This document shows positions 2,456-62,793 of a stretch of DNA of 64,000 nucleotides, one piece after another. The stretch covers positions 22,955 through 86,954 of the forward strand of contig CAKPLP010000005.1 of NCBI GenBank assembly GCA_934167695.1. The letters are read 5' to 3'. Source of the stretch: an uncultured Bacilli bacterium (GTDB lineage Bacteria; Bacillota_I; Bacilli_A; RF39; UBA660). Every line of letters starts with the position of its first letter. The first letter of the stretch is position 1. A program made the position numbers and the translations under genes. The notes under the pieces are model-generated. The model made no database searches and was not told the origin of the DNA. It saw only the letters and a program-made list of their open reading frames with translations.

Positions 2456-4108
2456 TTAACACACTTCTACTATATCACCAAATATATCAGATGCGCTATT
2501 ATTATTTGTATTTTTTTCTTCTTTTTTATCGAACACTAGTTCTTGTTCTTCTATATATTTATAAGTAATATTATTCTTTTTGTTTTTCACATATTCCTTT
2601 GCAGCATCATTCCAATCAGAATCAGTAATTATAGCCAATTTTTTATTAATATTCAATTTTTCTTTTAATACTTTTGACATTGCATCAATATTATTTAAAT
2701 TTTCTAAGACTATAGATTCATATTCATAACTAATTATCAAATAATCCTCACTTGAAAGTCTAAGATTACCTTCCAACAATGCACAAACTAAATAACCTAT
2801 TTGTTGATCAAAAACAAAATCATTTAATTTTTCAAAGCTATTCTTATCTTTATTTAGTTCCTCCTTAGTTGCATTAATAAAGGCATTATTCAAACGTGTT
2901 TTCATAATATTCATTATATTAGAATTTAATAAGTTATTATCGCTGACAATAGAAGTTTCATGTGAAACTTGATTAACAACACTATGATTTTCTTCTTTAG
3001 CACTTATTGCTGGTTCATTTATATTCTCTTTCTTCTTAATGGATGCTTTATCATTAGAAATTATTTCCCGGGAAATAATTTTATTATTATTTATAAAAGA
3101 TAAAAACATTATTTCTATATATATTTTAGGATTTGAACTTTTTTTAATATCAAACATTTTTTCATTTATAAGATTTGCCAATTTTTGATAATTGTCTATA
3201 TTTACCTTACCAGTTTCATTAATGTATTCCGAAATAATCTCTTCCTTTAAATAATTTAATAATTGAATCATTATTTGAATAAGATTTTTTCCTTTATCAT
3301 TCCATTTTTCCAAAAAATTAATTGTAGAAATAGCATCAAAATCAAATATATAATTTATCAATTCTTCTAAATCACTTTTAACAACTAAGCCATTCAAATT
3401 TAAAAAATCATTCATTAAAATTTTACCATCTGAATAAGAACTTAATTTATCAAGCATTCCTAAAGAATCTCTCATTCCACCATCTGATACTATCGCAATA
3501 TTCTTTAAAACTTCTATATCAACATCAATATTTTCTTTTTTAGAAACCATAGTTAAATTATCTATAATATTTTGTTCAGTCATTCTAGAAAAATTAAAGC
3601 ATTGACATCGTGAAATTATTGTTTCAGGAATTTTTTGAGGATCAGTAGTAGCTAATATAAATATAATATGTTCAGGTGGCTCTTCTAATGTTTTTAAAAG
3701 AGCATTAAATGCTTGAATTGTAAGCATATGAACCTCATCAATAATATATACTTTATATTTCAATTCACTAGGAACCAAATTGATTTTTTCTCGTAAATTT
3801 CTAATTTCATCAACACCATTATTAGAAGCAGCATCTATCTCTATAATATCAAGACAATCATCACCAGAAACATTACATATATCACAACAACCACAAATAT
3901 CACCATCATTATTATTTAAACAATTAACTGCTCGTGCAAATATCTTAGCTGTGGATGTTTTTCCTGTTCCACGTGGACCAATAAACAAATACGCATGAGA
4001 AATTTTATTATTTTTTATAGAATTTTTTAATGTTTTTACAATTATTTCTTGTCCAACTATATCTTCAAATTTTTTAGGTCTATATTTTCTATATAAAGTT
4101 TGATACAT
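2456..4108 (-). CDS. dnaX: DNA polymerase III gamma/tau subunit
   Basis: Walker A motif GPRGTGKTS and a Zn module (CGCCDICN). The N-terminus is YRKYRPKKFEDIVGQE, typical of DnaX. Confidence 0.9.
   Translation of the reverse strand: MYQTLYRKYRPKKFEDIVGQEIIVKTLKNSIKNNKISHAYLFIGPRGTGKTSTAKIFARAVNCLNNNDGDICGCCDICNVSGDDCLDIIEIDAASNNGVDEIRNLREKINLVPSELKYKVYIIDEVHMLTIQAFNALLKTLEEPPEHIIFILATTDPQKIPETIISRCQCFNFSRMTEQNIIDNLTMVSKKENIDVDIEVLKNIAIVSDGGMRDSLGMLDKLSSYSDGKILMNDFLNLNGLVVKSDLEELINYIFDFDAISTINFLEKWNDKGKNLIQIMIQLLNYLKEEIISEYINETGKVNIDNYQKLANLINEKMFDIKKSSNPKIYIEIMFLSFINNNKIISREIISNDKASIKKKENINEPAISAKEENHSVVNQVSHETSIVSDNNLLNSNIMNIMKTRLNNAFINATKEELNKDKNSFEKLNDFVFDQQIGYLVCALLEGNLRLSSEDYLIISYEYESIVLENLNNIDAMSKVLKEKLNINKKLAIITDSDWNDAAKEYVKNKKNNITYKYIEEQELVFDKKEEKNTNNNSASDIFGDIVEVC
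3063..3076. repeat. ATTTCCCGGGAAAT 14-bp palindrome inside the dnaX coding sequence. Three more copies lie in the gyrA-downstream repeat array.
   Basis: Exact string match. The GC-rich core CCCGGG is unusual in a roughly 25% GC background. Confidence 0.6.
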
Positions 4109-4621: not shown

Positions 4622-4630
4622 TTTTCCTCC

Positions 4631-4712
4631 AAAAAAAAGTGCACATAAGTTAAATGTGTTAAGGCTGCTATCTTCCAATCCTGACCTGTTTCCACAATAA
4701 CTTATTGCACAA
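4631..4712 (-). ncRNA. ffs: signal recognition particle RNA (small 4.5S-type SRP RNA)
   Basis: The minus-strand sequence GUGCAAUAAGUUAUUGUGGAAACAGGUCAGGAUUGGAAGAUAGCAGCCUUAACACAUUUAACUUAUGUGCAC-U8 carries the conserved domain IV: CAGGUCAGG ... GGAA tetraloop ... AGCAGCC. The 5' and 3' ends pair, and a U-tract follows. Confidence 0.6.
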
Positions 4713-4759
4713 ATTTATTTTATACTACTTTTAATTTTTTTTCAACAAAAAAAGTTAAT

Positions 4760-4833
4760 AAAAATATTTCCCGGGAAATATTTTTAACTCTCCGAACAAA
4801 TTCTGTGGAAAAAGTTCCACGTGGAACATTTCT
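4760..4833. repeat. composite repeat copy A: ATTTCCCGGGAAAT (4766-4779), TGTGGAAAA DnaA-box-like (4804-4812), GTTCCACGTGGAAC palindrome (4814-4827)
   Basis: Direct sequence comparison with copies B and C. Confidence 0.8.
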
Positions 4834-5005
4834 TTTTATTATATAAAAGTAATATTCCAACATTATAAAAAACAATAAAATTTAAATATATAAAATTATA
4901 TTCATAATAATTAATAGTACTTACTACTTCTAACCGCATTAATAATATTTTATAAAAAAAAGATAAAAATATTAAACTATTTAAACATATCTCATATATT
5001 AATAT

Positions 5006-5078
5006 AAAAATATTTCCCGGGAAATATTTTTAACTCTTCGAATAAGTTCTGTGGAAAAAGTTTCACGTGAAACATTCT
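5006..5078. repeat. composite repeat copy B: ATTTCCCGGGAAAT (5012-5025), TGTGGAAAA (5050-5058), GTTTCACGTGAAAC (5060-5073)
   Basis: Direct sequence comparison. About 90% identical to copy A over roughly 65 bp. Confidence 0.8.
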
Positions 5079-5220
5079 TTTTACTATACCTAATTTTTAT
5101 ATAGTTTTATCAATATACAATTCTTTTTATAATTATAAATTTATAATCAAATTATATATTAAAATTAAATATATTTGTTAATGATTAACAATTAACTAAT
5201 CAAAGCTTTATCATAATCAA

Positions 5221-5300
5221 TAAAATATTTCCCGGGAAATAATTTGCAAATTAATTTTTTTCAACAATATGTGTGGATAAAAAGTTTCACGTGAAACATA
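5221..5300. repeat. composite repeat copy C: ATTTCCCGGGAAAT (5227-5240), TGTGGATAA, a perfect DnaA box on the opposite strand (5273-5281), GTTTCACGTGAAAC (5284-5297)
   Basis: Direct sequence comparison. Confidence 0.8.
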
Positions 5301-5533
5301 AAATTATTAACAGGTACCTTAATTTAAGATATAAAACTTCCAACAAAACATATTTAACTTTAATAATAAACAATTTCAAAAAATTTTTATTTTTTATATT
5401 AATTATTAAAAACAATATAAAATATATTATATTTGTACTCATATTTTGAAACCATTTAATTAACAAATTATTAAATATTAAAAAAACATAATATATATTT
5501 AATAAAAATAACTAATAAATATACAATAAAAAT

Positions 5534-5603
5534 AATCCACAAAAAATGTGAATTATTTTTGTTTCACGTGAAACTTTTTCAGCTTCAAAATATTTTTTCC
5601 ACA
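5534..5603. repeat. partial, inverted repeat copy D: TAATCCACA (5534-5542), GTTTCACGTGAAAC (5561-5574), TTTTCCACA (5595-5603)
   Basis: Same motifs as copies A-C, but inverted in order and orientation. Confidence 0.6.
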
Positions 5604-5689
5604 GAAAAACGATATTATTATACTATTTTATAATTATAAATCTCATTATACTCAAACATTTGTTTAATATTATGCCATAAAAAAAGAGA

Positions 5690-8152
5690 TTATTCAGTAA
5701 TCTCCTTTTCAACTTCTTCTAATTTATTATCTTCAGAATCATCTTTAGTAACTAACGCAATAGTTGCAACAGTTTGATCATCTCTTAAATTTATTAGTCT
5801 TACTCCCTGAGTAGCTCTCTTCAAAATAGAAATCTGATTTAATGGCATCCTTATAATAGTACCACTATTAGTAATAATCATTAAATCATTATCATTTAAA
5901 TTATCAATAGTTTTCAATGAAATTATTGAGCCGTTTTTATCGGTCATATTTAGCCCTTTAACGCCTTTACTACCTCTATGGGTTAATCTATATTCATCAA
6001 CTAAAGTTTGCTTACCATAGCCCTTTTCTGTAACAATTAAGACATATTGCTCAGGATGAACAATTTCTGCACCTATAACAACAGAATTTTCCATATCTAT
6101 TCCTTTTACTCCACTTGCAGTTCTACCCATAACTCTTACTTCATTTTCATTAAATCTAACCATACGACCATTACTTGAACCAATAATAATCTCATCATTT
6201 CCTGTAGTTTTTCTAACACTTATTAATTGATCATTCTCCTTCAAAGTAATTGCCAATTTTCCGCCATTTCTTATTCTATCAAACTCAGAAAGATCAGTTC
6301 TCTTAATTAATCCATTTTTAGTAACAAAAACTAAATACTTAATACTATCAGATTCAGTAGAAATATTTACAACAGAGTTAATTATCTCACCTTTATCTAA
6401 TGATAATAAATTAATTATAGGTAAACCTTTTGATTGTCTAGCAAATTCTGGTATTTCATATCCTTTTAATCTATAAACTTTACCCATATTAGAGAAGAAT
6501 AATATATAATCATGGGTTTTCATATTAACTAAATGCTCTACAAAATCTTCTTCATTAGTAGCCATTCCTTTAATTCCTACTCCTCCACGATTTTGAGCTT
6601 TATATACATCACTTTTAACCCTCTTAATATAACCTTTATTAGTTAAAGTAACAATAATATCATCAACAGGTATCAAAGATTCATCTTCAATATATTCAAT
6701 AGCAGTCATATCAATATTTGTTCTTCTCTCATCTGCATATTTATTTTTAATTTCTAACATTTCAGATTTTATTATATCCAAAACTTTTTGTTCACTAGCT
6801 AATATAGACCTTAATTCTTCTATTTCTGCTAATAAAGCTTGAAGTTCATTTTCAATTTTATCTCTTTCCAAGCCAGTCAATCTTCTAAGTTTCATCTCCA
6901 AAATAGCTTGTGATTGAACCTCGCTTAAATTATAAGTATTAATTAACCCATTCATAGCATCTTCATCACTCTTAGATGACTTAATTAACTTAATAATTTC
7001 ATCTATATGATCAAGAGCTATTTTTAATCCTTCTAAAATATGTGCTCTCTTTTCATCTTTTTCCAAATCAAATCTAGTACGTCTTATTACAATTTCCTTT
7101 TGATAATCAACATACTTAGAAATTATATCCTTTAATCCTAATGTTTTAGGAACACCCTGATCAAGCATTAAAAAGATTATACCAAAGTTATTTTGGAAAG
7201 CAGTATGCTTATAAAGATTATTAAGAACAACTTGAGGATTAGCATCTTTTTTCAAAGTTATAGTAATTTTAATACCATCTTTTAAATCAGTGTGGTAATC
7301 ACTAATACCCTCTATCGTTTTATTGTGAACTAATTCTGCAACCTTATTTTTTAAATCTAAAGTATTAACACCATAAGGAACTTCATCAATAATTATATAA
7401 TGCTTTCCTTTTTCTTCTTCTATTCTGGCCTTACTTCTTATAGTTATTGAACCACGACCAGTTTCATAAGCCTTTCTAATACCACTATTTCCCAAAATAG
7501 TTGCACCAGTAGGAAAATCAGGTCCCTTAATATACTGCATTAAGCCATCTAAATCGATATCAGGATTATCAATATAAGCAATACATCCATCAATTACCTC
7601 TCCTAAATTATGAGGTGGAATATTAGTAGCCATTCCTACAGCAATACCCATAGTTCCATTAACTAAAATATTAGGAAATCTTGATGGAAGAATTTCAGGT
7701 TCTTTTTCTGTTTCATCAAAATTAGGCTTAAAATTAACTGTATTTTTATTTATATCTCTCAATAATTCTAACGAAATCTTAGAAAGTCTAGATTCAGTAT
7801 AACGCATAGCTGCTGCGCCATATCCTTCTATATTACCAAAATTACCATGACCATCTACCAACATATAACGATAAGAAAAATCCTGAGCCATTCTTACCAT
7901 AGCTTCATAAATTGAACTATCACCATGTGGATGATATTTTCCCATTACATCACCAACAATTCTAGCACTTTTTTTATGAGGTTTATCTGGAGTATAACCT
8001 GATTCATACATTGAATACAAAATACGTCTATGAACAGGCTTTAAACCATCTCTAAGATCAGGTAAGGCACGTGATATTATTACACTCATAGAATACTCTA
8101 AAAATGAATCTCTAACTTCTTTTACTATATTATTTTTCTCTAATCTATCCAT
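5690..8152 (-). CDS. gyrA: DNA gyrase subunit A
   Basis: An 820-aa protein containing the RYTE(S/A)R active-site region (MRYTESRLS). It lies immediately after gyrB. Confidence 0.95.
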
Positions 8153-11330: not shown

Positions 11331-11795
11331 TTATTCATAACTATTTCCATTTTTTCTATTCTTTAAAAGATAGCTTAGCCTAGTTGCTCTAAAAATTTGA
11401 TTTTGCACCGCTCTAAATGATAAAGGAAGTAACAATTCAGCACCATTATCAAATACAATTTTCGTTGTATTATATTGATCTTCATAGAAATTCTTAACCC
11501 TGTTAACAGCTATCCACATACATTCATTATCATCAGGACTTGTCGTTGGAAAAAAGACTATATTTCTTGCATCTTCAACTATAATAGGAATTTTATAATT
11601 TGCACCAATTATTGCCTTAGCTCCTTCCTTTCTTCCTTCATAACTACTACCAAAATATTTACAACTATGATCTAAAATATCAAAAGATTTTTTTTCTATA
11701 ACATAATTATTATTATCCTCCAATATTTTAGAACTACCATTAGCCATTGAAATAATAGCTAAAGTACCTTCATTAATTTCATATTCATTTTTCAT
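11331..11795 (-). CDS. comK: ComK-family competence transcription factor homolog
   Basis: SCKYFGSSYEGRKEGAKAI...IPIIVEDARNIVFFPTTSPDDNECMWI...IVFDNGAELLLPLSF aligns with the B. subtilis ComK segment SCRFFGSSYAGRKAGT...PPIMVDPSNQIFLFPTLSSTRPQCGWI...VTFSNGKTMELPISY. The start was set at MKNEY after an AGGGGGA RBS. Confidence 0.7.
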   Translation of the reverse strand: MKNEYEINEGTLAIISMANGSSKILEDNNNYVIEKKSFDILDHSCKYFGSSYEGRKEGAKAIIGANYKIPIIVEDARNIVFFPTTSPDDNECMWIAVNRVKNFYEDQYNTTKIVFDNGAELLLPLSFRAVQNQIFRATRLSYLLKNRKNGNSYE

Positions 11796-11930
11796 AAATT
11801 TCCCCCTATGTAGACATTTTCCTGTCCACATCTATAAAATAACACATCCAAAACTCGAAATTTGTTGAAATATGTCACTAAAATTTAAAAAATGTCAAAA
11901 AAAAATTACTAAAATAAATTAGCAATTTTT

Positions 11931-13061: not shown

Positions 13062-13213
13062 TTTAATTCCTTCTTTCTTATTCTATTAATATAAATTGTA
13101 TTATTATTATAGCTGTGGAAAAAGTTGAAAACTCTTCTTTTCACTTATATTATAACATATTTTTTAAAATTATCCTGTGGAAAACATTGTTGATATATAT
13201 TTTTTTCCACAAC
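13062..13213. promoter_or_regulatory. oriC: oriC, dnaA-dnaN half: DnaA boxes plus an AT-rich unwinding region
   Basis: TGTGGAAAA at about 13114 and about 13176, TTTTCCACA at about 13203, and an AT-rich run (ATATAAATTGTATTATTATTATA). Confidence 0.7.
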
Positions 13214-14575
13214 CTATTCAATATCCTTTTTTAATTTTTCTATAATATTAGCCAAATCTTTATTAACTTTTATCTCATTTTCTATTTTCTCTACAGAATG
13301 CATTACAGTAGAATGATCTTTTCCACCAAATTCTGTTCCAATCTTAGGAAATGATTCATTAGTCATGCATCTACATAAGTACATCGCAATCTGTCTTGGA
13401 AAAGCAATATTCGAACTTCTTTTTTTACTTCTAATATCTTCAACACTTATTTGGAAGAATTCAGCTACAACCTTTTGAATTCTATGAACATCATTTTTTT
13501 CACTAATTCCTTTACTAATAAAGTCTTTTAATGCCTCAATAGCTAAATTTAAAGTAATTGCAGACCCTCCCATGATAGCAGAATATGCAACAAGTCTTGT
13601 AATAGAACCCTCTAATTGTCTAACATCATTACCCATATTAGAAGCAATATATTCTATAACATCTTCTGGTATTTCCTTTTCAAAATTACCTGCAATTATT
13701 TTTCTTTTTATAATTTCTACTCTTAAATTGAAATCCGGTGGAAAAATATTAACTGTCAATCCCCAACAAAACCTTGTTCTTAAACGATCTTCCAATAACT
13801 TTAAATCATCTGGAGATCTATCTGATGATATAATAATTTGCTTAGAATCACTATATAATGTATTAAAAGTATGGAAAAATTCCTGTTGAGTCTGAGTAGC
13901 TCCACCTAAAAATTGAATATCATCAATAATTAATACATCAACATTTCTATATTTATTTTTAAAGAAATCTACATAGTTGAAATTTGTTCCATTACTATCC
14001 TTTTTATTTATACCAATAAAATCCTGAATAAATTGATCACTTGTAACATATAAAACTCTTTTATTAGAATTAGCAATTATATAATTACCAATAGCATGCA
14101 TTAAATGAGTTTTTCCAAGACCACTATTACCATATATAAATAATGGATTATACATTTTTCCGGGATTCTCAGCTACAGACAATGCTGCAGCCTGTGCAAA
14201 CTTATTACTATTACCAACAATAAAATTTTCAAATGTATATTTTGTATTTAAATTACTTTGTTCTTTATTATTATGGGGAACTCCACTAGGAATATCTTCT
14301 ACCTTAGTTTTTTTATTCTCTTCCTTAATTTCTTCCTCTAAAACAAATTCCAGCTCAAAATTTGTACCAGTAATATTATTTAATATATATTTAATTTTTT
14401 CTTCATAATTATCAGATAAATGTTTCTTATGAATAGGCATAGGTACAACAATAACAGCTTTTCCATCTTCTAATTTATATAATTTCGTATCTGCAAACCA
14501 AGTATCGTATGCAAGAGAGGAAAGTTCTTCTTTAATTTGTTTTAAAAAATTGGTCCAAAGGACCCCCATATTCAT
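13214..14575 (-). CDS. dnaA: chromosomal replication initiator DnaA
   Basis: AAA+ motif GNSGLGKTHL and a C-terminal DNA-binding domain. The start was set at MNMGVLW after a GAGGGGAG RBS. The 31-aa extension upstream in the ORF track runs into the DnaA-box array. Confidence 0.95.
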   Translation of the reverse strand: MNMGVLWTNFLKQIKEELSSLAYDTWFADTKLYKLEDGKAVIVVPMPIHKKHLSDNYEEKIKYILNNITGTNFELEFVLEEEIKEENKKTKVEDIPSGVPHNNKEQSNLNTKYTFENFIVGNSNKFAQAAALSVAENPGKMYNPLFIYGNSGLGKTHLMHAIGNYIIANSNKRVLYVTSDQFIQDFIGINKKDSNGTNFNYVDFFKNKYRNVDVLIIDDIQFLGGATQTQQEFFHTFNTLYSDSKQIIISSDRSPDDLKLLEDRLRTRFCWGLTVNIFPPDFNLRVEIIKRKIIAGNFEKEIPEDVIEYIASNMGNDVRQLEGSITRLVAYSAIMGGSAITLNLAIEALKDFISKGISEKNDVHRIQKVVAEFFQISVEDIRSKKRSSNIAFPRQIAMYLCRCMTNESFPKIGTEFGGKDHSTVMHSVEKIENEIKVNKDLANIIEKLKKDIE

Positions 14576-14927
14576 TTGACCATCTCCCCTCGAGCAATTT
14601 GTACAACAATTATAATAAAACATATTGTGGAAAAAATAAACAAAAAAATAACAATTTTTTTTCTCCACAACATTTCCACAGTTTTTTCCACATCCGAATG
14701 TTATATTCTATAATGATAAAAATCACTTTTCCACATTTTCCACAATTTTTTTATTAACAAGTTTAAAAAAGATATTCACAGCAATGTTAATTCTGTGGAA
14801 AAAGAAAAATAATCACAAAAATTAATAAATAAAAAGAATAAATTTTCTCGATAATAAAACTTTTATTTGACAAATAAAACTTTTATCCATTATAATAAGG
14901 GAGATTTATGTCTGGAGGTGGAAATTT
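14576..14927. promoter_or_regulatory. oriC: oriC, rpmH-dnaA half: array of at least 7 DnaA boxes
   Basis: TGTGGAAAA (14634), TTCTCCACA (14662), ATTTCCACA (14672), TTTTCCACA (14685, 14727, 14736), TGTGGAAAA (14794). It lies between divergent rpmH and dnaA. Confidence 0.8.
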
Positions 14928-21580: not shown

Positions 21581-23059
21581 ATGGACACTGATAAGGAAGT
21601 AATTTATCTACATTTAGATGATATAATACCAAATAGATTTCAGCCTCGTGAAGTATTTGATGAAAGAGCCCTAAAAGAACTAGCCGTTTCAATTAAAGAA
21701 CATGGTGTAATTCAACCAATTATTGTACGTCAAATTAAATCTAATAATAAATATGAAATAATTGCAGGAGAAAGAAGATATAAGGCATCTGCATTAGCAG
21801 GACTAACAAAAATACCAGCAATTATTAGAAACTTAGATGATAAAGAAGCAGCAAAAGTTGCATTACTAGAAAACTTACAAAGAAAAAATTTAAACCCTAT
21901 AGAAGAAGCGCGAACATATCAAAAAATAATTGAATTAGATCAAATGACTCAAGAGGATTTAGCCAAAACGATGGGAAAAAGTCAATCAGCAGTAGCAAAT
22001 AAATTAAGATTGTTGTCATTACCAGATGAAATTCAAAAATCTCTTTTAAAAGAGGAAATATCTGAAAGACATGCTAGAACTTTGCTAAACTTGGAAACCC
22101 CAGAAGAACAAAAGGAAATGTTAAAAAGAGTTATAAAAGAAAAAATGACAGTTAGAAAATTAGAAGAGGAAATAAAAAGAAAAAATATGCCAGAAGAAAC
22201 TGAAAAAATAAAAGATCAAGAAGATTTACAATCAATAATAAATCCACAACCAGTTAAATTACAGTCTGAAAAGAGTTTTTTAATGGATCCTACTCCAATA
22301 GATAATAGTAGTGACAAAATAATAAATTATGGTGAAATAAATGATGAAGAAGAACAGGAAGAAGCCTCATCAACTGATGAACTTTCATCAAGTGCTGCAG
22401 AGCCTATAGATTTAGGAAAATTAAAATCCAGTTCTGTTGATATAGCGGATTATAATAGCATTAAACAACAAGAAGATAATAAAACTGATGACTTAGATAG
22501 TCTATTAAATCTAAAAAATCCTGATAATAATCAAAAAGATAATAAATTCTTTACACCAGCACAAGAAGCATTGCGAGAAAGTGAAAACAATAAAGAAAAT
22601 AAAGAAGATTATTTTTCAGCACCAGATTTAATGTCAATAGAATTACCAAATTCAAGTAGTAGTGCACAATCTGGAAATACCTTTATGGATAAACCAAACA
22701 TTCCGACAAATAAGTTTGATAGTTTAATTGATTTTGCAAATTCTTCTCCATCCCCTACTAAGTCAAATAATAATCTAACAAGTCTTGATCAGACTTTATT
22801 CCAAAAACCAATCGATACAAAAATGGAAAATAATAATTCAAAGTCAAACAAATCACTAGGAATGGCTCTAATGACAGAAGCATACAATAGCAATACCAAA
22901 AATAAAGAAGAACAATATAATATTCAACAAATGGTAAATGCTATCAGAAAAACATTAGCAGATTTAGAAGCTCATGGCGCAAAAATAGATACAGATGAGA
23001 TGAATTTTGAAAATCAATATCAAATATTAATAAAAATAGATAAGGACAGTAATTACTAA
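21581..23059 (+). CDS. noc: Noc-like ParB-family protein with a long low-complexity C-terminal extension
   Basis: The N-terminal 190 aa align with B. subtilis Noc (IPNRFQPR, GERR, HTH KSQSAVANKLRLL). It is followed by a roughly 290-aa acidic Ser/Asn/Asp-rich region. Its position after rsmG matches noc. Confidence 0.7.
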   Translation: MDTDKEVIYLHLDDIIPNRFQPREVFDERALKELAVSIKEHGVIQPIIVRQIKSNNKYEIIAGERRYKASALAGLTKIPAIIRNLDDKEAAKVALLENLQRKNLNPIEEARTYQKIIELDQMTQEDLAKTMGKSQSAVANKLRLLSLPDEIQKSLLKEEISERHARTLLNLETPEEQKEMLKRVIKEKMTVRKLEEEIKRKNMPEETEKIKDQEDLQSIINPQPVKLQSEKSFLMDPTPIDNSSDKIINYGEINDEEEQEEASSTDELSSSAAEPIDLGKLKSSSVDIADYNSIKQQEDNKTDDLDSLLNLKNPDNNQKDNKFFTPAQEALRESENNKENKEDYFSAPDLMSIELPNSSSSAQSGNTFMDKPNIPTNKFDSLIDFANSSPSPTKSNNNLTSLDQTLFQKPIDTKMENNNSKSNKSLGMALMTEAYNSNTKNKEEQYNIQQMVNAIRKTLADLEAHGAKIDTDEMNFENQYQILIKIDKDSNY

Positions 23060-23174: not shown

Positions 23175-23963
23175 ATGGGAAAGACAATTTCACTAGTAAA
23201 TCAAAAAGGTGGTGTAGGTAAAACCACTACAAGTATAAATCTTTCTGCATCATTGGCAGTATTAGGAAAAAAGGTTTTATTAATAGACTTAGATCCTCAA
23301 GGAAATACAACAACAGGTGTAGGAATAAATAAAGCGGACATTGATAAAAGTATTTATGATGTTTTAATTGGAAATTGTAAAATAAAAGAAGCTATGATTA
23401 AAACAAAGTATAAAAAATTATATGTAATACCTGCAACTATTAATTTAGCAGGATTAGATATAGAATTATTAGAAAAAAGTCAACATGAACCGGGATATCA
23501 AAAAGGAAACCAATTAAAAAATAATATTGATGAAATAAAAGATGATTTTGACTATATTATTATTGATTGTCCTCCATCATTAGGTTTAATAACTACAAAT
23601 GCATTAACTGCTTCAAATTCAGTAATAATTCCTGTTCAATGTGAATTTTTTGCTCTAGAAGGAATTATGCAATTATTAAATACAATTATGTTAGCTCAGA
23701 AAACTTTAAACCCAGATTTACAAATAGAAGGAGTATTATTAACAATGCTTGATTCAAGAACTAATTTAGGTTTCGAAGTAGTTGACGATATTAGAAAATT
23801 TTTCAAAGAAAAGGTTTACAATACCATAATTCCCAGATTAATAAGATTAACGGAAGCTCCTTCACATGGAGAACCAATAATAGCATACGATCCAAAAAGT
23901 AGAGGATCAGAAGCTTATATAAATCTTGCAAAGGAAGTGATTGAGAGAAATGGAACAAACTAA
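23175..23963 (+). CDS. soj: chromosome partitioning ATPase ParA/Soj
   Basis: Deviant Walker A motif KGGVGKTT. Confidence 0.85.
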   Translation: MGKTISLVNQKGGVGKTTTSINLSASLAVLGKKVLLIDLDPQGNTTTGVGINKADIDKSIYDVLIGNCKIKEAMIKTKYKKLYVIPATINLAGLDIELLEKSQHEPGYQKGNQLKNNIDEIKDDFDYIIIDCPPSLGLITTNALTASNSVIIPVQCEFFALEGIMQLLNTIMLAQKTLNPDLQIEGVLLTMLDSRTNLGFEVVDDIRKFFKEKVYNTIIPRLIRLTEAPSHGEPIIAYDPKSRGSEAYINLAKEVIERNGTN

Positions 23964-24840
23964 TATAAAAAGAAAGGCCTTAGGTAAAGGTTTAGAAGAA
24001 TTATTTAGTAGTGAACCAATAGACTATACTAAAGTAGAAGAAAAAATAATAGATCAAACACCAAAAGAAAAAATTGTAAATATACCTTTAAAAGATTTAA
24101 GAAGTAACCCATATCAGCCAAGAAAAATATTTGATGAACAAGCATTAGAAGAATTAGCATCATCAATTAAAGAACATGGAGTTTTTCAACCTATTATTGT
24201 TAAAAAAAGTATAAAAGGTTATGAAATAATAGCAGGAGAAAGAAGAGTAAAAGCCTCTATAATTGCAGGACTTGAAGAAATTCCAGCGATTGTAAGAGAA
24301 TTTTCCGATTCAGAAATGATGGAAATTGCTCTTCTAGAAAATCTTCAAAGAGAAAATCTAACTTCTATTGAGGAAGCAAATGCCTATCAAAAATTAATTG
24401 AAAATTTAAATATTACTCAAGAACAATTAGCAGAAAAATTAGGTAAAAGTAGATCCCATATCACTAATACTTTAGGACTTTTATCACTACCACAAGAAAC
24501 ACAATCATTAATAAATGAAAGAAAAATATCAATGGGACATGCAAGAGTTTTAAGTAAATTGGAGGACTCTTATCAAATAAAAGAATTAACTGACAAAGTA
24601 ATAACAGAAGGATTAAGCGTAAGAGACTTAGAAAATCTAACATCAAAAAATGATGATTATGTTAGAAGAAATAAAATAGTTAAAAAAAGTAATAAAGAAA
24701 ACCCATATAAATATATAGAAGACAGTTTAAATGAAAAATTAGGGACTAAGGTAAAATTAAAAAATAATAAAATAGAAATTTCATTTACAAATACCAATGA
24801 TTTAAATAGACTTTTAGAAATAATGCACCTTGATAAATAA
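23941..24840 (+). CDS. spo0J: chromosome partitioning protein ParB/Spo0J
   Basis: ParB box (GERR) and an HTH. It is paralogous to the Noc N-terminus. Confidence 0.85.
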   Translation: MREMEQTNIKRKALGKGLEELFSSEPIDYTKVEEKIIDQTPKEKIVNIPLKDLRSNPYQPRKIFDEQALEELASSIKEHGVFQPIIVKKSIKGYEIIAGERRVKASIIAGLEEIPAIVREFSDSEMMEIALLENLQRENLTSIEEANAYQKLIENLNITQEQLAEKLGKSRSHITNTLGLLSLPQETQSLINERKISMGHARVLSKLEDSYQIKELTDKVITEGLSVRDLENLTSKNDDYVRRNKIVKKSNKENPYKYIEDSLNEKLGTKVKLKNNKIEISFTNTNDLNRLLEIMHLDK

Positions 24841-32940: not shown

Positions 32941-34311
32941 ATGGCTCTTAGAACTATGCCAAATAATATAGAAGCAGAAAAGTCCGTTTTAGGGGCCTGC
33001 TTCTTATCTAAATATGCTCTTCAAAAAGCTTGTGAAAGTTTAGATGAAGAAAAATTCTATGATGAAAAAAATAGTAAAATATTCCATGCAATGAAAAATT
33101 TACAAGAACAAAAAACTCCTGTAGACTTAACTACATTAACTTCAGAACTTCAAAAAGGTAATCAACTAAATGAAGTTGGTGGTGTGGAATATTTAACTGA
33201 AATCTTAAATTTTGTACCTGTTGCGACGAACGTAGATTATTATATAAAAAGTGTTGAAGATACCGCAATTTTACGTAATTTAATTGATACAGCTTCTAAT
33301 ATTGCAACAGAAGGATACAATCAAACCGAAGATATAAATCAAACCTTAGATGATGCAGAAAGAAAAATTTTAAATATAGTAAAAAATCGTAAATCAAGTG
33401 AATTTAAATCAATTCAGGAAGTTATGACAAATGCAGAAGCAAACTTAGAAAAACTAGCAGAATCTAAAGGAGAAGTAACGGGTTTACCAACAGGATGGTA
33501 TGATTTTGATAAATTAACCGCTGGTCTTCATGAAAACCAATTTATTATAATAGCAGCACGTCCAGCAATGGGAAAAACAGCTTTTGCCCTAAATATGGCA
33601 ACCAATGTAGCAATAAATACCGGAAAAACAGTAGCTTTATTTAACCTAGAAATGGGTGCAGAACAACTAGCAACAAGAATTATTTCATCTCTTGGTCAAA
33701 TAGAAGGCTATAAATTACAAACTGGTAAATTATTGAATGAAGATTGGAAAAGAGTAAGCGAAGCAGTAAGTCAATTAGAAAATACCAATATTTTTATAGA
33801 TGATACCCCCGGTATAACAATCGGTGAAATTAGAGCCAAGTGTCGTAGACTTGCTAGTAGTGAAAAAGGTTTAAGTTTAGTTATAATAGATTATTTACAG
33901 TTAATTTCTGGTGGTAAAAATTATGGAGCTAATAGACAACAAGAAGTTTCAGATATTTCACGTTCCCTAAAAACATTAGCAATGGAATTACATATTCCAG
34001 TAATTGCCCTAGCACAATTATCTCGTGCTGTAGAAGGAAGAGAAGACAAACGACCTTTAATGAGTGATTTACGTGAATCAGGTTCTATTGAACAAGATGC
34101 TGACATAGTATCATTCCTATATAGAGATGATTACTATAACAAAGAAGCAAGAAATGATGAAAATACAAGTATTAGTGAATTAATTATTGCAAAACACCGT
34201 AATGGACCAACCGCTACTATAGAATTATTATTCAAAAAAAATACTAGTACATTCTTAAATATTAGGAAAGAAGGTAATATGGGTGCTAAAAAAGAAGAAA
34301 ATTCAAACTAA
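32941..34311 (+). CDS. dnaB: replicative DNA helicase (DnaB-type; DnaC in Bacillus)
   Basis: RecA-like helicase motifs (ARPAMGKTAF, DYLQLI). Its position after rplI is conserved. Confidence 0.9.
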   Translation: MALRTMPNNIEAEKSVLGACFLSKYALQKACESLDEEKFYDEKNSKIFHAMKNLQEQKTPVDLTTLTSELQKGNQLNEVGGVEYLTEILNFVPVATNVDYYIKSVEDTAILRNLIDTASNIATEGYNQTEDINQTLDDAERKILNIVKNRKSSEFKSIQEVMTNAEANLEKLAESKGEVTGLPTGWYDFDKLTAGLHENQFIIIAARPAMGKTAFALNMATNVAINTGKTVALFNLEMGAEQLATRIISSLGQIEGYKLQTGKLLNEDWKRVSEAVSQLENTNIFIDDTPGITIGEIRAKCRRLASSEKGLSLVIIDYLQLISGGKNYGANRQQEVSDISRSLKTLAMELHIPVIALAQLSRAVEGREDKRPLMSDLRESGSIEQDADIVSFLYRDDYYNKEARNDENTSISELIIAKHRNGPTATIELLFKKNTSTFLNIRKEGNMGAKKEENSN

Positions 34312-59806: not shown

Positions 59807-62302
59807 ATGAAAATATTAAGAAAATTATTCGATCATGAGTATAAAGAACTAAAAAGATTCTCAAAAATAGCAGATCAAGTTATGGAACTTGATGAAGAAA
59901 TGCAAAAACTTACTGATACGGAATTAAAAGCTAAAACAGAAGAGTTTAAAGAAGCTTTAAAAAATGGAAAAACATTAGATGACATTTTAGTTGAAGCCTT
60001 TGCTGTAGCACGTGAAGCAAGTTACAGAGTAATAGGTGAAAAACCATTCTACGTTCAAATACTAGGTGCTTGTGCTATCCATTACGGAAATATTTCTGAA
60101 ATGAAAACAGGTGAAGGTAAAACATTAACAAGTGTACTACCTGCCTATTTAAATGCTTTAACAGGAAAAGGTGTTCATATAATAACAGTAAATGAATATC
60201 TTGCTAGTCGTGATGCTAATTGGATGGGTGGAATTCATAGATTCTTAGGATTAACAGTAGGAGTAAACTTAAGAGAATTAACAACAAAAGAAAAGAAGGA
60301 ACAATATAATTGTGATATTCTTTATTCTACAAACAATGAAATAGGATTTGACTATCTAAGAGATAATATGGTAGTTAACAAGGAAGATCGTGTTCAAAGA
60401 CCATTAAACTTTGCCATAATTGATGAAGTTGATTCAGTTTTAATAGATGAAGCACGTACACCATTAATTATTTCCGGCGGTCAAATGAATAGTGCCAACT
60501 TATATATAGATGCAGATCGATTTGTAAAATCATTAAAAAAAGAAGAAGACTTCATTTACGATGAAAAAACAAAAAGTGTTAACCTTAATGATCAAGGAAG
60601 TGAAAAGGCTGAGAAGACTTTTCATATAAAAAATCTTTACGATATAGATAATGCAACATTATTACATTATATAAATCAAGCTTTAAGAGCAAATTATGCT
60701 ATGAGTGCTGATGTTGATTATGTTGTAAAAGACGGCGAAATAGTAATAGTAGATCAATTCACAGGTCGTCTTATGAAGGGTCGTGCTTATAGTGATGGAC
60801 TTCATCAAGCTATTGAAGCAAAAGAAGGAGTTACTATAAATGAGGAAACAAAAACTCTAGCTCAAATTACTTTCCAAAATTTATTTAGAATGTATAAAAA
60901 ATTATCTGGTATGACTGGTACAGCAAAAACAGAAGAAGAAGAATTTAGAAATATTTACAACATGTATGTAATTGAAATACCTACAAATAAAGAAGTTATC
61001 AGAATAGATGCTCCAGATTTGGTATATGCTAGTAAAGCTGCTAAATATAAAGCTATTATTAAATTTGTTAAAGAAAGATATGAAAAAGGACAACCAGTTC
61101 TTATCGGAACTATCGCAATAGAAACAAGTGAATTAATTAGTAGTATGTTAAAACAAGCCCATATACCACATGAAGTTTTAAACGCTAAAAACCATGAAAG
61201 AGAAGCTGAAATTATATCAAAAATAGGTCTACATAAATCAGTAACTATTGCAACAAACATGGCAGGACGTGGAACTGATATTAAATTATCTGATGAAATA
61301 AGAGAATTAGGTGGATTATGTGTTGTCGGAACAGAAAGACATGAATCACGTCGTATTGATAATCAGTTAAGAGGACGTTCAGGACGTCAAGGAGATCCGG
61401 GATATACTCAATTCTTTGTTTCAATGGAAGATGATTTGATGGTTCGTTTTGGTTCTGATAGAATTAAAACAATGATGGAAAGCATGGGTATTGGTGAACA
61501 AGCTATTAGAAGTAGAACTATAACAAACTCTATAGGAACTGCCCAAGCAAGAGTAGAAGGAAACAACTTTGATATTCGTAAACAACTATTACAATACGAT
61601 GATGTAATAAATAATCAAAGAGAAATAATTTACGAAAGAAGAAATAATATTCTAGATAGTGAATCTATTCATACAGAAACATTAGATACATTTAGACATC
61701 ACATTGAAGATTTAATAAACTCACATTATGTAATAGATAATGAAATAAACGATGACGATATAGATGAAATAACAGAATTTGCAAATGAAAATTTATTAAA
61801 AAAGGATATTAAAAAATCATCATTAAAATCATTAGATAAAGATGAAATTATCGATAAAATATATAAATTAGTAGTAAATGAATATGAAGAAAAAATAGGT
61901 GATATACCAGATGAAGTAAAAGATGAATTTGAAAAAGCCATAACACTTCAAGTAATTGATAATTATTGGATGGAACACATTAATACAATGGCTCATTTAA
62001 GAGAAGGAATTTATCTAAGAGGTTATGGCCAAGAAGATCCTTTACACGCCTATACAATGGAAGGATTTCAAATGTTTGATTCAATGCTTCAAAAAATCGA
62101 TAAAGACATTACTGTATTTTTACTAAAAGCAGAAATAAGAAAAAATATAGAAAGAAAAGAAATTAAAAAAGATAAAATGATGACTAATGAAGATAAAGAA
62201 ACAACATTAAAGAAGAAACCAAAAAAGGTAAAAAAAGTAGGTCGCAATGAGTTGTGTCCTTGTGGCAGTGGCAAAAAGTACAAAAACTGTTGTGGCAAAT
62301 AA
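59807..62302 (+). CDS. secA: preprotein translocase ATPase SecA
   Basis: An 831-aa protein with DEAD-like motor motifs and the C-terminal Zn finger CPCGSGKKYKNCCG. Confidence 0.95.
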   Translation: MKILRKLFDHEYKELKRFSKIADQVMELDEEMQKLTDTELKAKTEEFKEALKNGKTLDDILVEAFAVAREASYRVIGEKPFYVQILGACAIHYGNISEMKTGEGKTLTSVLPAYLNALTGKGVHIITVNEYLASRDANWMGGIHRFLGLTVGVNLRELTTKEKKEQYNCDILYSTNNEIGFDYLRDNMVVNKEDRVQRPLNFAIIDEVDSVLIDEARTPLIISGGQMNSANLYIDADRFVKSLKKEEDFIYDEKTKSVNLNDQGSEKAEKTFHIKNLYDIDNATLLHYINQALRANYAMSADVDYVVKDGEIVIVDQFTGRLMKGRAYSDGLHQAIEAKEGVTINEETKTLAQITFQNLFRMYKKLSGMTGTAKTEEEEFRNIYNMYVIEIPTNKEVIRIDAPDLVYASKAAKYKAIIKFVKERYEKGQPVLIGTIAIETSELISSMLKQAHIPHEVLNAKNHEREAEIISKIGLHKSVTIATNMAGRGTDIKLSDEIRELGGLCVVGTERHESRRIDNQLRGRSGRQGDPGYTQFFVSMEDDLMVRFGSDRIKTMMESMGIGEQAIRSRTITNSIGTAQARVEGNNFDIRKQLLQYDDVINNQREIIYERRNNILDSESIHTETLDTFRHHIEDLINSHYVIDNEINDDDIDEITEFANENLLKKDIKKSSLKSLDKDEIIDKIYKLVVNEYEEKIGDIPDEVKDEFEKAITLQVIDNYWMEHINTMAHLREGIYLRGYGQEDPLHAYTMEGFQMFDSMLQKIDKDITVFLLKAEIRKNIERKEIKKDKMMTNEDKETTLKKKPKKVKKVGRNELCPCGSGKKYKNCCGK

Positions 62303-62346
62303 CCTCGCAAATCCTTATAAAATAAGGAATTGTTAAAAAAAGAAAA

Positions 62347-62466
62347 AATAATAAATTTGTCCACAGATGACAATTTGTCCACGATTTGTCCACATAGCAT
62401 AAATAACGTGGACAGAATCGTGGAACCCCCCCATAAAAATCAATAAAAAATCTACGTGGACAATTA
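62347..62466. promoter_or_regulatory. array of six TGTCCAC-core 9-mers (3 direct, 3 inverted) with a C7 tract. Candidate DnaA-box cluster or iteron/arm-site array.
   Basis: TTGTCCACA (62347), TTGTCCACG (62365), TTGTCCACA (62376), CGTGGACAG (62397), CGTGGAAC + C7 (62409-62422), CGTGGACAA (62445), TGTGGACAT (62458). Confidence 0.45.
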
Positions 62467-62553
62467 TTGTGGACATAGTTATATAAAATGTCAGCATTCG
62501 AAATGCTGGCATTTTTCCGTTTCATTAAGTTTTATAATGAAGGAGAGATAACT

Positions 62554-62793
62554 ATGGTAAGCGTAAGAAAACTTGGAAAGGTATATGAATACCGATTTGA
62601 AATTGCTTTAACTAACATTGGCAAAATATCTTATGAAGTATTAGAAGGATTAAATTATCGTGCTGCAAGACTGGCACAGATTCCTGATGAACAATATCGT
62701 GAAATGTTTAGAAAATATGCTTCTAGTAAAACAAAAACACCACAAGAAACCGAAATGCTATTAGATAGAATTGTTGAAGGAAAAAATCAATAA
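62554..62793 (+). CDS. hypothetical small protein (79 aa from the ATG after a GGAGAG RBS)
   Basis: MVSVRKLGKVYEYRFEIALTNIGK... The N-terminus loosely resembles the KRG-K-W-YR pattern of integrase arm-type DNA-binding domains. There is no catalytic domain. Confidence 0.3.
   Translation: MVSVRKLGKVYEYRFEIALTNIGKISYEVLEGLNYRAARLAQIPDEQYREMFRKYASSKTKTPQETEMLLDRIVEGKNQ

Follow-up and report, generated by a model that had tools for sequence, protein, structure and literature searches.

We analyzed a 64-kb window of genome from an uncultured Bacilli bacterium (contig CAKPLP010000005.1; "the window" is the whole of this stretch) and found that the spacer between gyrA and ffs, the gene for the small signal recognition particle (SRP) RNA, holds two kinds of palindromic site whose probable binding proteins are encoded on the other side of the replication origin. 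One palindrome, ATTTCCCGGGAAAT, reads as the exact consensus Noc-binding site (NBS), and the other, GTTYCACGTGRAAC, reads as parS, the centromere site of ParB/Spo0J. We consider it very probable that the spacer is an origin-proximal, centromere-like loading zone, with four parS sites for ParB/Spo0J and three NBS for a Noc-type paralog of that protein. The reading draws on observations of five kinds: what the sites are, how far they exceed chance, the presence of cognate genes whose specificity residues fit, the short distance to the origin, and conservation of position across the clade.

NBS and parS sites in the gyrA-ffs spacer

The AT-rich, non-coding spacer occupies positions 4721-5689 (969 bp) between the gyrA stop codon and ffs. 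Every strong parS site of the window, four in number, lies in it, as do three of the window's four NBS (Table 1). The published parS consensus is TGTTTCAC-GTGAAACA, or TGTTTCACGTGAAACA as a 16-mer, and that of the NBS is TATTTCCC-GGGAAATA, or TATTTCCCGGGAAATA as a 16-mer (PMC7383237). Exact copies of ATTTCCCGGGAAAT start at 4766, 5012, and 5227 in the spacer and at 3063 in dnaX; four copies stand against 0.16 expected, and none of 100 shuffles reached that number. All four NBS match the consensus over the full 16 bp and are confined to 2.2 kb. Copies of GTTYCACGTGRAAC start at 4814, 5060, 5284, and 5561 in the spacer, and a search allowing up to two mismatches returned five matches against 0.11 expected, the fifth being a one-mismatch copy at 2955 in dnaX. 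Three of the four spacer parS sites depart from the 16-mer consensus by one mismatch each, at the outermost base, while two of the three mismatches in parS 1 form a symmetric T/A to C/G change in the core. Other parS-like matches in the window at up to three mismatches are two degenerate ones in dnaX and one each at 34065 and 60004. A preliminary description of this DNA had proposed a non-coding cluster of protein-binding sites, and that proposal holds, with the motifs in place and far above chance and the cluster close to the origin.

The sites are arranged in units that differ in make-up. Neighboring NBS in the spacer lie 246 and 215 bp apart, in agreement with the copy spacing of about 215-245 bp given earlier, and each of these NBS is followed by a parS at 48, 48, and 57 bp. 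Units 1 and 2 arose from a 79-nt duplication and are 91% identical. Unit 3 has the motifs alone in common with them, and unit 4 consists of parS and DnaA boxes with no NBS. The copies are dispersed in the spacer, not tandem. NBS 1 and NBS 2 are each the center of a perfect 28-bp palindrome, TAAAAATATTTCCCGGGAAATATTTTTA (4759-4786 and 5005-5032), and two distant relatives, L082 and L088, match the window at every base over 32-34 nt around the NBS. These features hint at a part for the A/T flanks in binding.

The fourth NBS lies within a coding sequence. The preliminary description had noted that the palindrome recurs in dnaX, and this recurrence is exact and is kept in about 22 related species: among 91 related loci, about 22 have an exact NBS in dnaX, always within residues 331-384 of the window DnaX numbering. 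This region lies just past the conserved ATPase domains, and the DnaX protein is poorly conserved there. In one relative (L083), dnaX has three NBS in a 48-bp register. Because the NBS recurs where the protein itself is poorly conserved, the pattern points to selection on the dnaX site as DNA, which would lengthen the Noc-type loading zone by 1.7 kb. A parS-like 16-mer in the same gene, TGTTCCACGTGGACCA (3965-3980), overlaps the codons of the DnaX Walker A motif (GPRGTGKT); no equivalent was found in the dnaX of other species among the related loci compared, and this match is probably a by-product of coding constraint.

Cognate ParB-family proteins across the origin

The GC skew switches sign at 14-15 kb in the window, at dnaA and its flanking DnaA-box clusters. 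The spacer is about 9-10 kb from dnaA/oriC, with dnaN, recF, gyrB, and dnaA between the array and the skew switch. On the other side of oriC, 16-19 kb from the spacer, lie the genes for the Noc-type protein and ParB, in the order rsmG, a 492-amino-acid ParB paralog, ParA, and a 299-amino-acid ParB (NCBIfam matches). This order matches gidB-noc-soj-spo0J of B. subtilis. The Noc and ParB genes have been described as lying in "genomic proximity" (PMC7383237). Translation of the 299-amino-acid ParB probably starts at the ATG at 23950.

The two proteins differ at the residues that set site specificity. At positions 173, 179, 184, and 201, Caulobacter ParB has R-T-A-G, and at the equivalent positions Noc has Q-K-K-R, where one lysine suffices (PMC7383237). 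The 299-amino-acid protein reads R-T-S-G at these positions and the 492-amino-acid paralog reads Q-K-S-R; in the clade, 10 homologs of the Noc-type protein all keep the Q, the K, and the R. The shorter protein also carries LGKGL, a ParA-binding motif as defined in PMC12704722. Because these specificity residues fit the parS and NBS types, the sites and the proteins appear to pair one to one. The palindromes had previously been assigned to an unknown binding factor, but since both are consensus sites of ParB and Noc, and the genes for both proteins are in the window, no such factor is needed.

By synteny, specificity residues, and C-terminal domain, the 492-amino-acid protein is a Noc ortholog, and yet it lacks the one feature that defines the known Noc mechanism. 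In B. subtilis Noc, the first 10 residues form an amphipathic helix on which both membrane binding and nucleoid occlusion depend; the same paper describes what the cytidine triphosphate (CTP) motifs GERR and ENLQR do (PMC8429893). The window protein has no N-terminal membrane-targeting helix: its residue 2 aligns with residue 24 of B. subtilis Noc, the open reading frame (ORF) cannot be extended upstream, and it is preceded by a strong GGGAGG ribosome-binding site. All 10 aligned clade homologs begin likewise, without the helix, and the GERR and ENLQR motifs are invariant in the alignment of these homologs. Between the DNA-binding and C-terminal domains is a low-complexity linker of about 225 amino acids, in which a Pfam search found no domain, and in which the family conserves the short motifs IINYGEI, DLDSLLN, EDYFxAPDLMSIxLP, and KSLGxxLM. 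Homology to the Noc C-terminal domain was seen by comparing a linker-excised construct with the NCBIfam model TIGR04285; a PDB search with the C-terminal 69 amino acids found no match. Homologs of 436-535 amino acids are common in metagenomes, some of them on contigs of 1.26-1.3 Mb.

Table 1. Coordinates of the sites, genes, and other features in the 64-kb window
Feature	Position	Strand	Description
NBS 1	4765-4780		Exact 16-bp consensus TATTTCCCGGGAAATA; center of perfect 28-bp palindrome
NBS 2	5011-5026		Exact 16-bp consensus
NBS 3	5226-5241		Exact 16-bp consensus
NBS in dnaX	3062-3077		Exact 16-bp consensus; codes I-S-R-E-I, DnaX residues 345-349
parS 1	4813-4828		AGTTCCACGTGGAACA; 3 mismatches to 16-mer consensus, symmetric C/G variant
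parS 2	5059-5074		AGTTTCACGTGAAACA; one mismatch at outermost position
parS 3	5283-5298		AGTTTCACGTGAAACA
parS 4	5560-5575		TGTTTCACGTGAAACT; without partner NBS
Noc-type ParB paralog	21581-23059	plus	NBS-specific type; 492 aa
ParA/Soj-type ATPase	23175-23963	plus	
ParB/Spo0J, canonical	23941-24840	plus	299 aa; R-T-S-G; LGKGL
DnaA box	4804-4812	minus	TGTGGAAAA; one mismatch; directly abuts parS 1
DnaA box	5050-5058	minus	TGTGGAAAA; abuts parS 2; within duplicate of unit 1
DnaA box	5272-5280	minus	TGTGGATAA; perfect consensus; 2 bp from parS 3
DnaA box	5533-5541	plus	TAATCCACA; 18 bp from parS 4
DnaA box	5595-5603	plus	TTTTCCACA; 19 bp from parS 4
dnaA and flanking oriC DnaA-box clusters	13114-14802		dnaA at 13214-14668, minus; at GC-skew switch
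gyrA	5690-8152	minus	NCBIfam match
gyrA intrinsic terminator, putative	5679-5704	minus	Hairpin GAGATTA-CTGAA-TAATCTC plus seven T; overlaps stop codon; by-eye reading
ffs (small SRP RNA)	4624-4720	minus	Rfam match; site cluster begins ~45 bp upstream
ffs promoter candidate	4745-4717		Sigma-70-like, TTGAAA-17-TAAAAT; at cluster edge
dnaX	2456-4108	minus	

Conservation in related genomes

We scanned 185,579 species-representative genomes for ATTTCCCGGGAAAT-N20-50-GTTYCACGTGRAAC, without constraint, and obtained at least 120 loci; the per-locus counts given below refer to the 120 matches listed. Among these, nearly all are low-GC (22-33%) uncultured metagenome-assembled genomes (MAGs), titled Bacilli, Tenericutes, Mycoplasma sp., Erysipelotrichaceae, or Clostridium sp. 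CAG:417 and CAG:1000. Almost every match listed falls in one slot, gyrA-[sites]-tadA-dnaX-ybaB-recR-holB, as determined by tblastn with the window proteins, across GyrA identities to the window of 46-86%. In all 14 relatives checked, ffs adjoins tadA, and no rRNA or tRNA was found in the gyrA-ffs spacers of these 14, which argues against the suggestion that an rrn operon had been replaced here. The cluster starts about 30-210 bp from ffs in 13 of the 14. When the window spacer is compared with all these loci, matches are confined to the parS sites and to the NBS together with about 10 nt of their flanks. Within the species itself, five independent assemblies agree over the whole spacer to 99.9-100%, and their gyrA genes have up to 13 differing positions.

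The number and arrangement of sites vary widely. The matches listed have a median of three NBS and four parS per locus, with maxima of 13 and 12, and many are strictly alternating tandem arrays with one NBS and one parS per unit, the units being 89-91% identical. Examples are at least 12.8 units of 80 bp in L078 (1133-2147), where the array runs off the contig end, and 10.7 units of 125 bp in L049 (2363-3702); L077, L020, L114, L125, and L144 also have regular tandem arrays. Neighboring sites are of different kinds in 72% of cases, versus 51% under label shuffling conditioned on ascertainment, a figure that includes non-independent cases produced by tandem amplification; more generally, statistical independence does not hold for arrays within or between related species. 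In the flanking DNA of the relatives (about 770 kb), about 40 NBS have no parS within 200 bp; many of these are in dnaX and a handful elsewhere.

Since the 120 loci were chosen by motif, we also drew a motif-independent sample by searching metagenome contigs with a TadA profile. NBS were found upstream of tadA in three of five low-GC loci with gyrA-tadA synteny, versus none of 75 others, and one of these sampled loci (L144) has a perfect alternating run (P-N-P-N) of nine sites. The cluster is thus specific to this clade and to this slot, though not every locus of the clade has it.

We also considered whether NBS and parS are held in helical phase. The raw distances between adjacent NBS and parS (L007-L126) show a periodicity of 10.5-11 bp (power of about 25, phase of about 170 degrees), with center-to-center distances piling up near 26, 36, 47, 57, and 69 bp, while parS-parS and NBS-NBS distances in the same loci show no periodicity. 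After related spacers were collapsed, the power fell to 3.8 (p ~0.08). Helical phasing is not sustained once shared ancestry is controlled, and we regard it as suggestive only.

Five loci of the low-GC Bacilli type (L021, L043, L054, L067, and L086) come from MAGs titled Bacteroides helcogenes or Muribaculaceae. These titles probably reflect binning contamination in public MAGs.

DnaA boxes in and around the array

Are the palindromes perhaps secondary, and is the spacer mainly a DnaA-box cluster that titrates or senses the initiator, like the oriC-proximal clusters of B. subtilis? The preliminary description had leaned this way, and its box cluster is real in this genome. Five boxes within one mismatch of the consensus lie in the spacer, where chance would give 0.32, and none of 2,000 dinucleotide shuffles reached five. 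They are the TTTTCCACA variant, with the same flanks as the oriC boxes, and this variant is the prevailing one beside oriC; the 13-mer TCTGTGGAAAAAG occurs both in the spacer (4802 and 5048) and at oriC (14792-14804). The association is also seen beyond this genome: 48 of 512 parS sites have a DnaA box within 10 bp of their edge, versus about 10 expected, in both orientations and most often with a gap of 1-2 bp. These cases come from 21 of the 120 listed genomes (about 18%), and the closest relative, L107, has two boxes in its spacer. An earlier test of ours, which looked for TGTGGA at a fixed offset beside parS, had suggested that the box was unique to the window genome; the general adjacency test partly reversed that result.

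What the boxes seem to lack is constancy. Of the 120 listed loci, 88 have no DnaA box in the cluster and 32 have any, and box density in the clusters, at 0.91 per kb, is little different from the 0.72 per kb of the flanking DNA. The parts that stay constant across the clade are parS and NBS, not the box, and in the window two of the five boxes stem from a single duplication. The boxes therefore appear to stand outside the clade-wide conserved core, and because they are the variable component, we find it unlikely that the locus is primarily a DnaA-titrating cluster. The same points, conservation of parS and NBS, variability of the box, and the shared origin of two boxes, lead us to see DnaA binding as an added layer in this species and lineage, about as likely as not, and not as the primary function of the array.

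Transcriptional control and repeat explanations

The position of the array beside ffs raises a further alternative, in which the spacer is a transcriptional control region and the ParB-family proteins regulate ffs-tadA-dnaX as operator-bound or spreading factors, in the manner of KorB or VirB, with no part in segregation. The preliminary description had assigned the ffs promoter to this region, and a sigma-70-like candidate is indeed found at the cluster edge, with NBS 1 about 20 bp upstream of its -35 element. The short distance between cluster and ffs in nearly all the relatives checked fits this idea, as does the further NBS inside dnaX. However, arrays of up to 25 sites go far beyond the needs of an operator, the sites are the chromosomal parS and NBS consensus, and the ParB has a ParA-binding motif and is encoded in a parA-parB operon. 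In L107, moreover, the nearest site is 211 bp from ffs. We therefore hold regulation of these genes to be a very improbable primary role for the array.

A selfish or neutral repeat, either an element like a repetitive extragenic palindrome (REP) or a miniature inverted-repeat transposable element or a product of slippage, that resembles binding sites by chance is scarcely credible: the recent duplication of copies 1 and 2 and the tandem amplification in relatives do suggest that array size may be partly neutral, but the strong copies in 64 kb are confined to one spacer and dnaX, conservation is limited to the two exact consensus palindromes and does not reach the filler, genes for binding proteins that fit the sites lie nearby, and the REP-like dispersed repeat that the preliminary description offered as its own alternative is excluded because the sites keep one syntenic slot across the clade and show no dispersal.

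Proposed mechanism

We infer what follows on binding, spreading, and the role of the Noc-type protein from the biochemistry of the ParB family. Each dimer would nucleate on its own palindrome, bind CTP, close as a clamp, and slide over several kilobases; S. aureus Noc spreads over 8-10 kb (PMC5540599). ParB, together with ParA and, by analogy, SMC, would then give order to the origin region and segregate it. Both clamps would be loaded on the same DNA, since tens of base pairs separate the paired NBS and parS, and the Noc-type clamp would occupy the same few kilobases as ParB. DnaA probably binds the array as well, because its boxes abut parS in this species, and such binding would couple or titrate initiation, as at the Caulobacter centromere. 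There, according to a review that summarizes Mera et al. 2014 (PMC6399470), DnaA binds boxes within the parS centromere and acts in segregation. Noc also acts on replication in S. aureus, where it keeps DnaA-dependent initiation in check by a mechanism not yet understood (PMC5540599).

Since the membrane-targeting helix is absent, the Noc-type protein probably does not use the membrane-tethering mechanism of B. subtilis. Its contribution may perhaps be to recruit a partner through the conserved linker motifs. It is tempting to go further and to propose, tentatively and with more doubt than conviction, that in this clade of low-GC, small-genome uncultured Bacilli the paralog is not a nucleoid-occlusion factor but a second clamp, loaded beside ParB on interleaved NBS and parS in a "dual-ParB centromere", with the linker motifs recruiting a partner to the origin region. 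Such a protein could be an evolutionary intermediate on the way from ParB to Noc, at a stage where the DNA specificity had switched but no membrane anchor had been acquired, or else a Noc that was later put to a new use.

Several points count against the spacer as a loading zone for both proteins. The full-length Noc-type protein scores 290.9 bits against TIGR04285, for which the NCBIfam cut-off is 315; excising the linker raises the score to 303.7 bits, still below the cut-off, with alignment to positions 1-255 of 255. The parS 1 site has three mismatches to the 16-mer consensus, and in the tadA sample the sites are missing from two of the five low-GC syntenic loci, which means that part of the clade does without the cluster. 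Metagenomes are the only source of this uncultured organism, and the case made here comes from sequence. In addition, the analysis covers 64 kb of the genome, where further parS and NBS may exist elsewhere, so that to call the spacer "the" centromere is an extrapolation, and the taxonomic distribution is a partial one, drawn from at least 120 loci.

Comparison with known systems

A close relative of this arrangement is the parS/ParB(Spo0J)/ParA(Soj) system of the B. subtilis type. The two have in common the 16-bp consensus, an origin-proximal site, and a parA-parB operon next to rsmG and noc, and the window ParB has the same parS-type specificity residues and ParA-binding motif. B. subtilis has its parS sites one by one at separate places around the origin, in several cases within a gene, whereas the strong parS sites of the window are all in one 1-kb non-coding spacer. 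The tandem arrays of the relatives, with up to 12 or more units, are more like plasmid centromere arrays, of which sopC is an example.

With Noc and NBS of B. subtilis and S. aureus the window shares the exact NBS consensus and a gene between rsmG and parA, whose product has Q, K, and R at the specificity positions, both CTP motifs intact, and a C-terminal domain like that of Noc. The NBS known so far occur at scattered positions in the origin-proximal half to two-thirds of the chromosome (PMC7383237, PMC5540599); those of the window are instead paired with parS in one cluster. Unlike B. subtilis Noc, the window paralog has no 10-residue N-terminal amphipathic helix and has a linker of about 225 amino acids.

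For the DnaA boxes, the nearest parallel is the Caulobacter parS centromere, which, according to the review (PMC6399470), also has initiator sites inside a centromere a few kilobases from the origin. That organism belongs to a different phylum, and the boxes described here differ in lying 1-2 bp from the parS edge, a feature of about 18% of the listed genomes of the clade. The DnaA-box clusters of B. subtilis are, to our knowledge, not described as built around parS and NBS. Like the window boxes they are intergenic and within about 10 kb of oriC (Okumura et al. 2012, cited in PMC6852036); at the clade locus the boxes are the variable part, and parS and NBS the constant one.

ParB and Noc are the model pair for a duplicated DNA-binding protein that gained a new specificity and a new function. 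In the species studied so far, their sites are separate and their jobs differ, whereas the clade described here, a group of uncultured gut bacteria, pairs both types of site at one origin-proximal locus, and its Noc is without the membrane anchor by which nucleoid occlusion is defined, either through loss or because it was never there. The parts (parS, NBS, ParB, and Noc) are known and the architecture seems to be new: a search of the full-text literature, which takes in few papers from subscription journals, brought up no account of NBS and parS that are paired or interleaved in one conserved intergenic slot, so that an earlier description is possible. Do two CTP-dependent clamps co-assemble on one centromere, what is the job of a Noc without an anchor, and which came first, the change of specificity or the binding to membranes? 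As an aid to annotation, the pair of palindromes would mark the centromere in hundreds of MAGs that lack such an annotation, and Noc-type proteins of 470-535 amino acids should not be named "nucleoid occlusion protein" without care.

Other features of the window

Past ffs, the gene order is tadA, dnaX, ybaB, recR, and there is no tRNA gene in the window. At the other end of the spacer, the hairpin that overlaps the gyrA stop codon is a probable intrinsic terminator; it was missed by the terminator scan because its stem has just two G-C pairs.

A separate repeat cluster, unrelated to parS, lies at 62340-62480, where TTGTCCAC(A/G) or its complement, a sequence that departs from a DnaA box at one position, is repeated about six times in 130 bp between a large ORF ending at 62302 (secA, according to the preliminary description) and a small ORF at 62556-62793. 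The preliminary description had placed a copy of CGTGGAAC after secA at 62409; the sequence is present, at 62419, and as a candidate for an additional parS it was rejected because it is a half-site inside the TTGTCCAC repeat.

A ComK-family gene (Pfam PF06338, E = 4.7e-43) lies between dnaN and recF at 11331-11831 on the minus strand, and a tblastn match to it was found in all 23 related loci that reach far enough, making it an unusual fixture of the origin gene block. On the same strand, at 1311-1496, is a gene of the sporulation-associated BofA family (Pfam PF07441 in the equivalent locus L001), in an organism with an apparently small genome.

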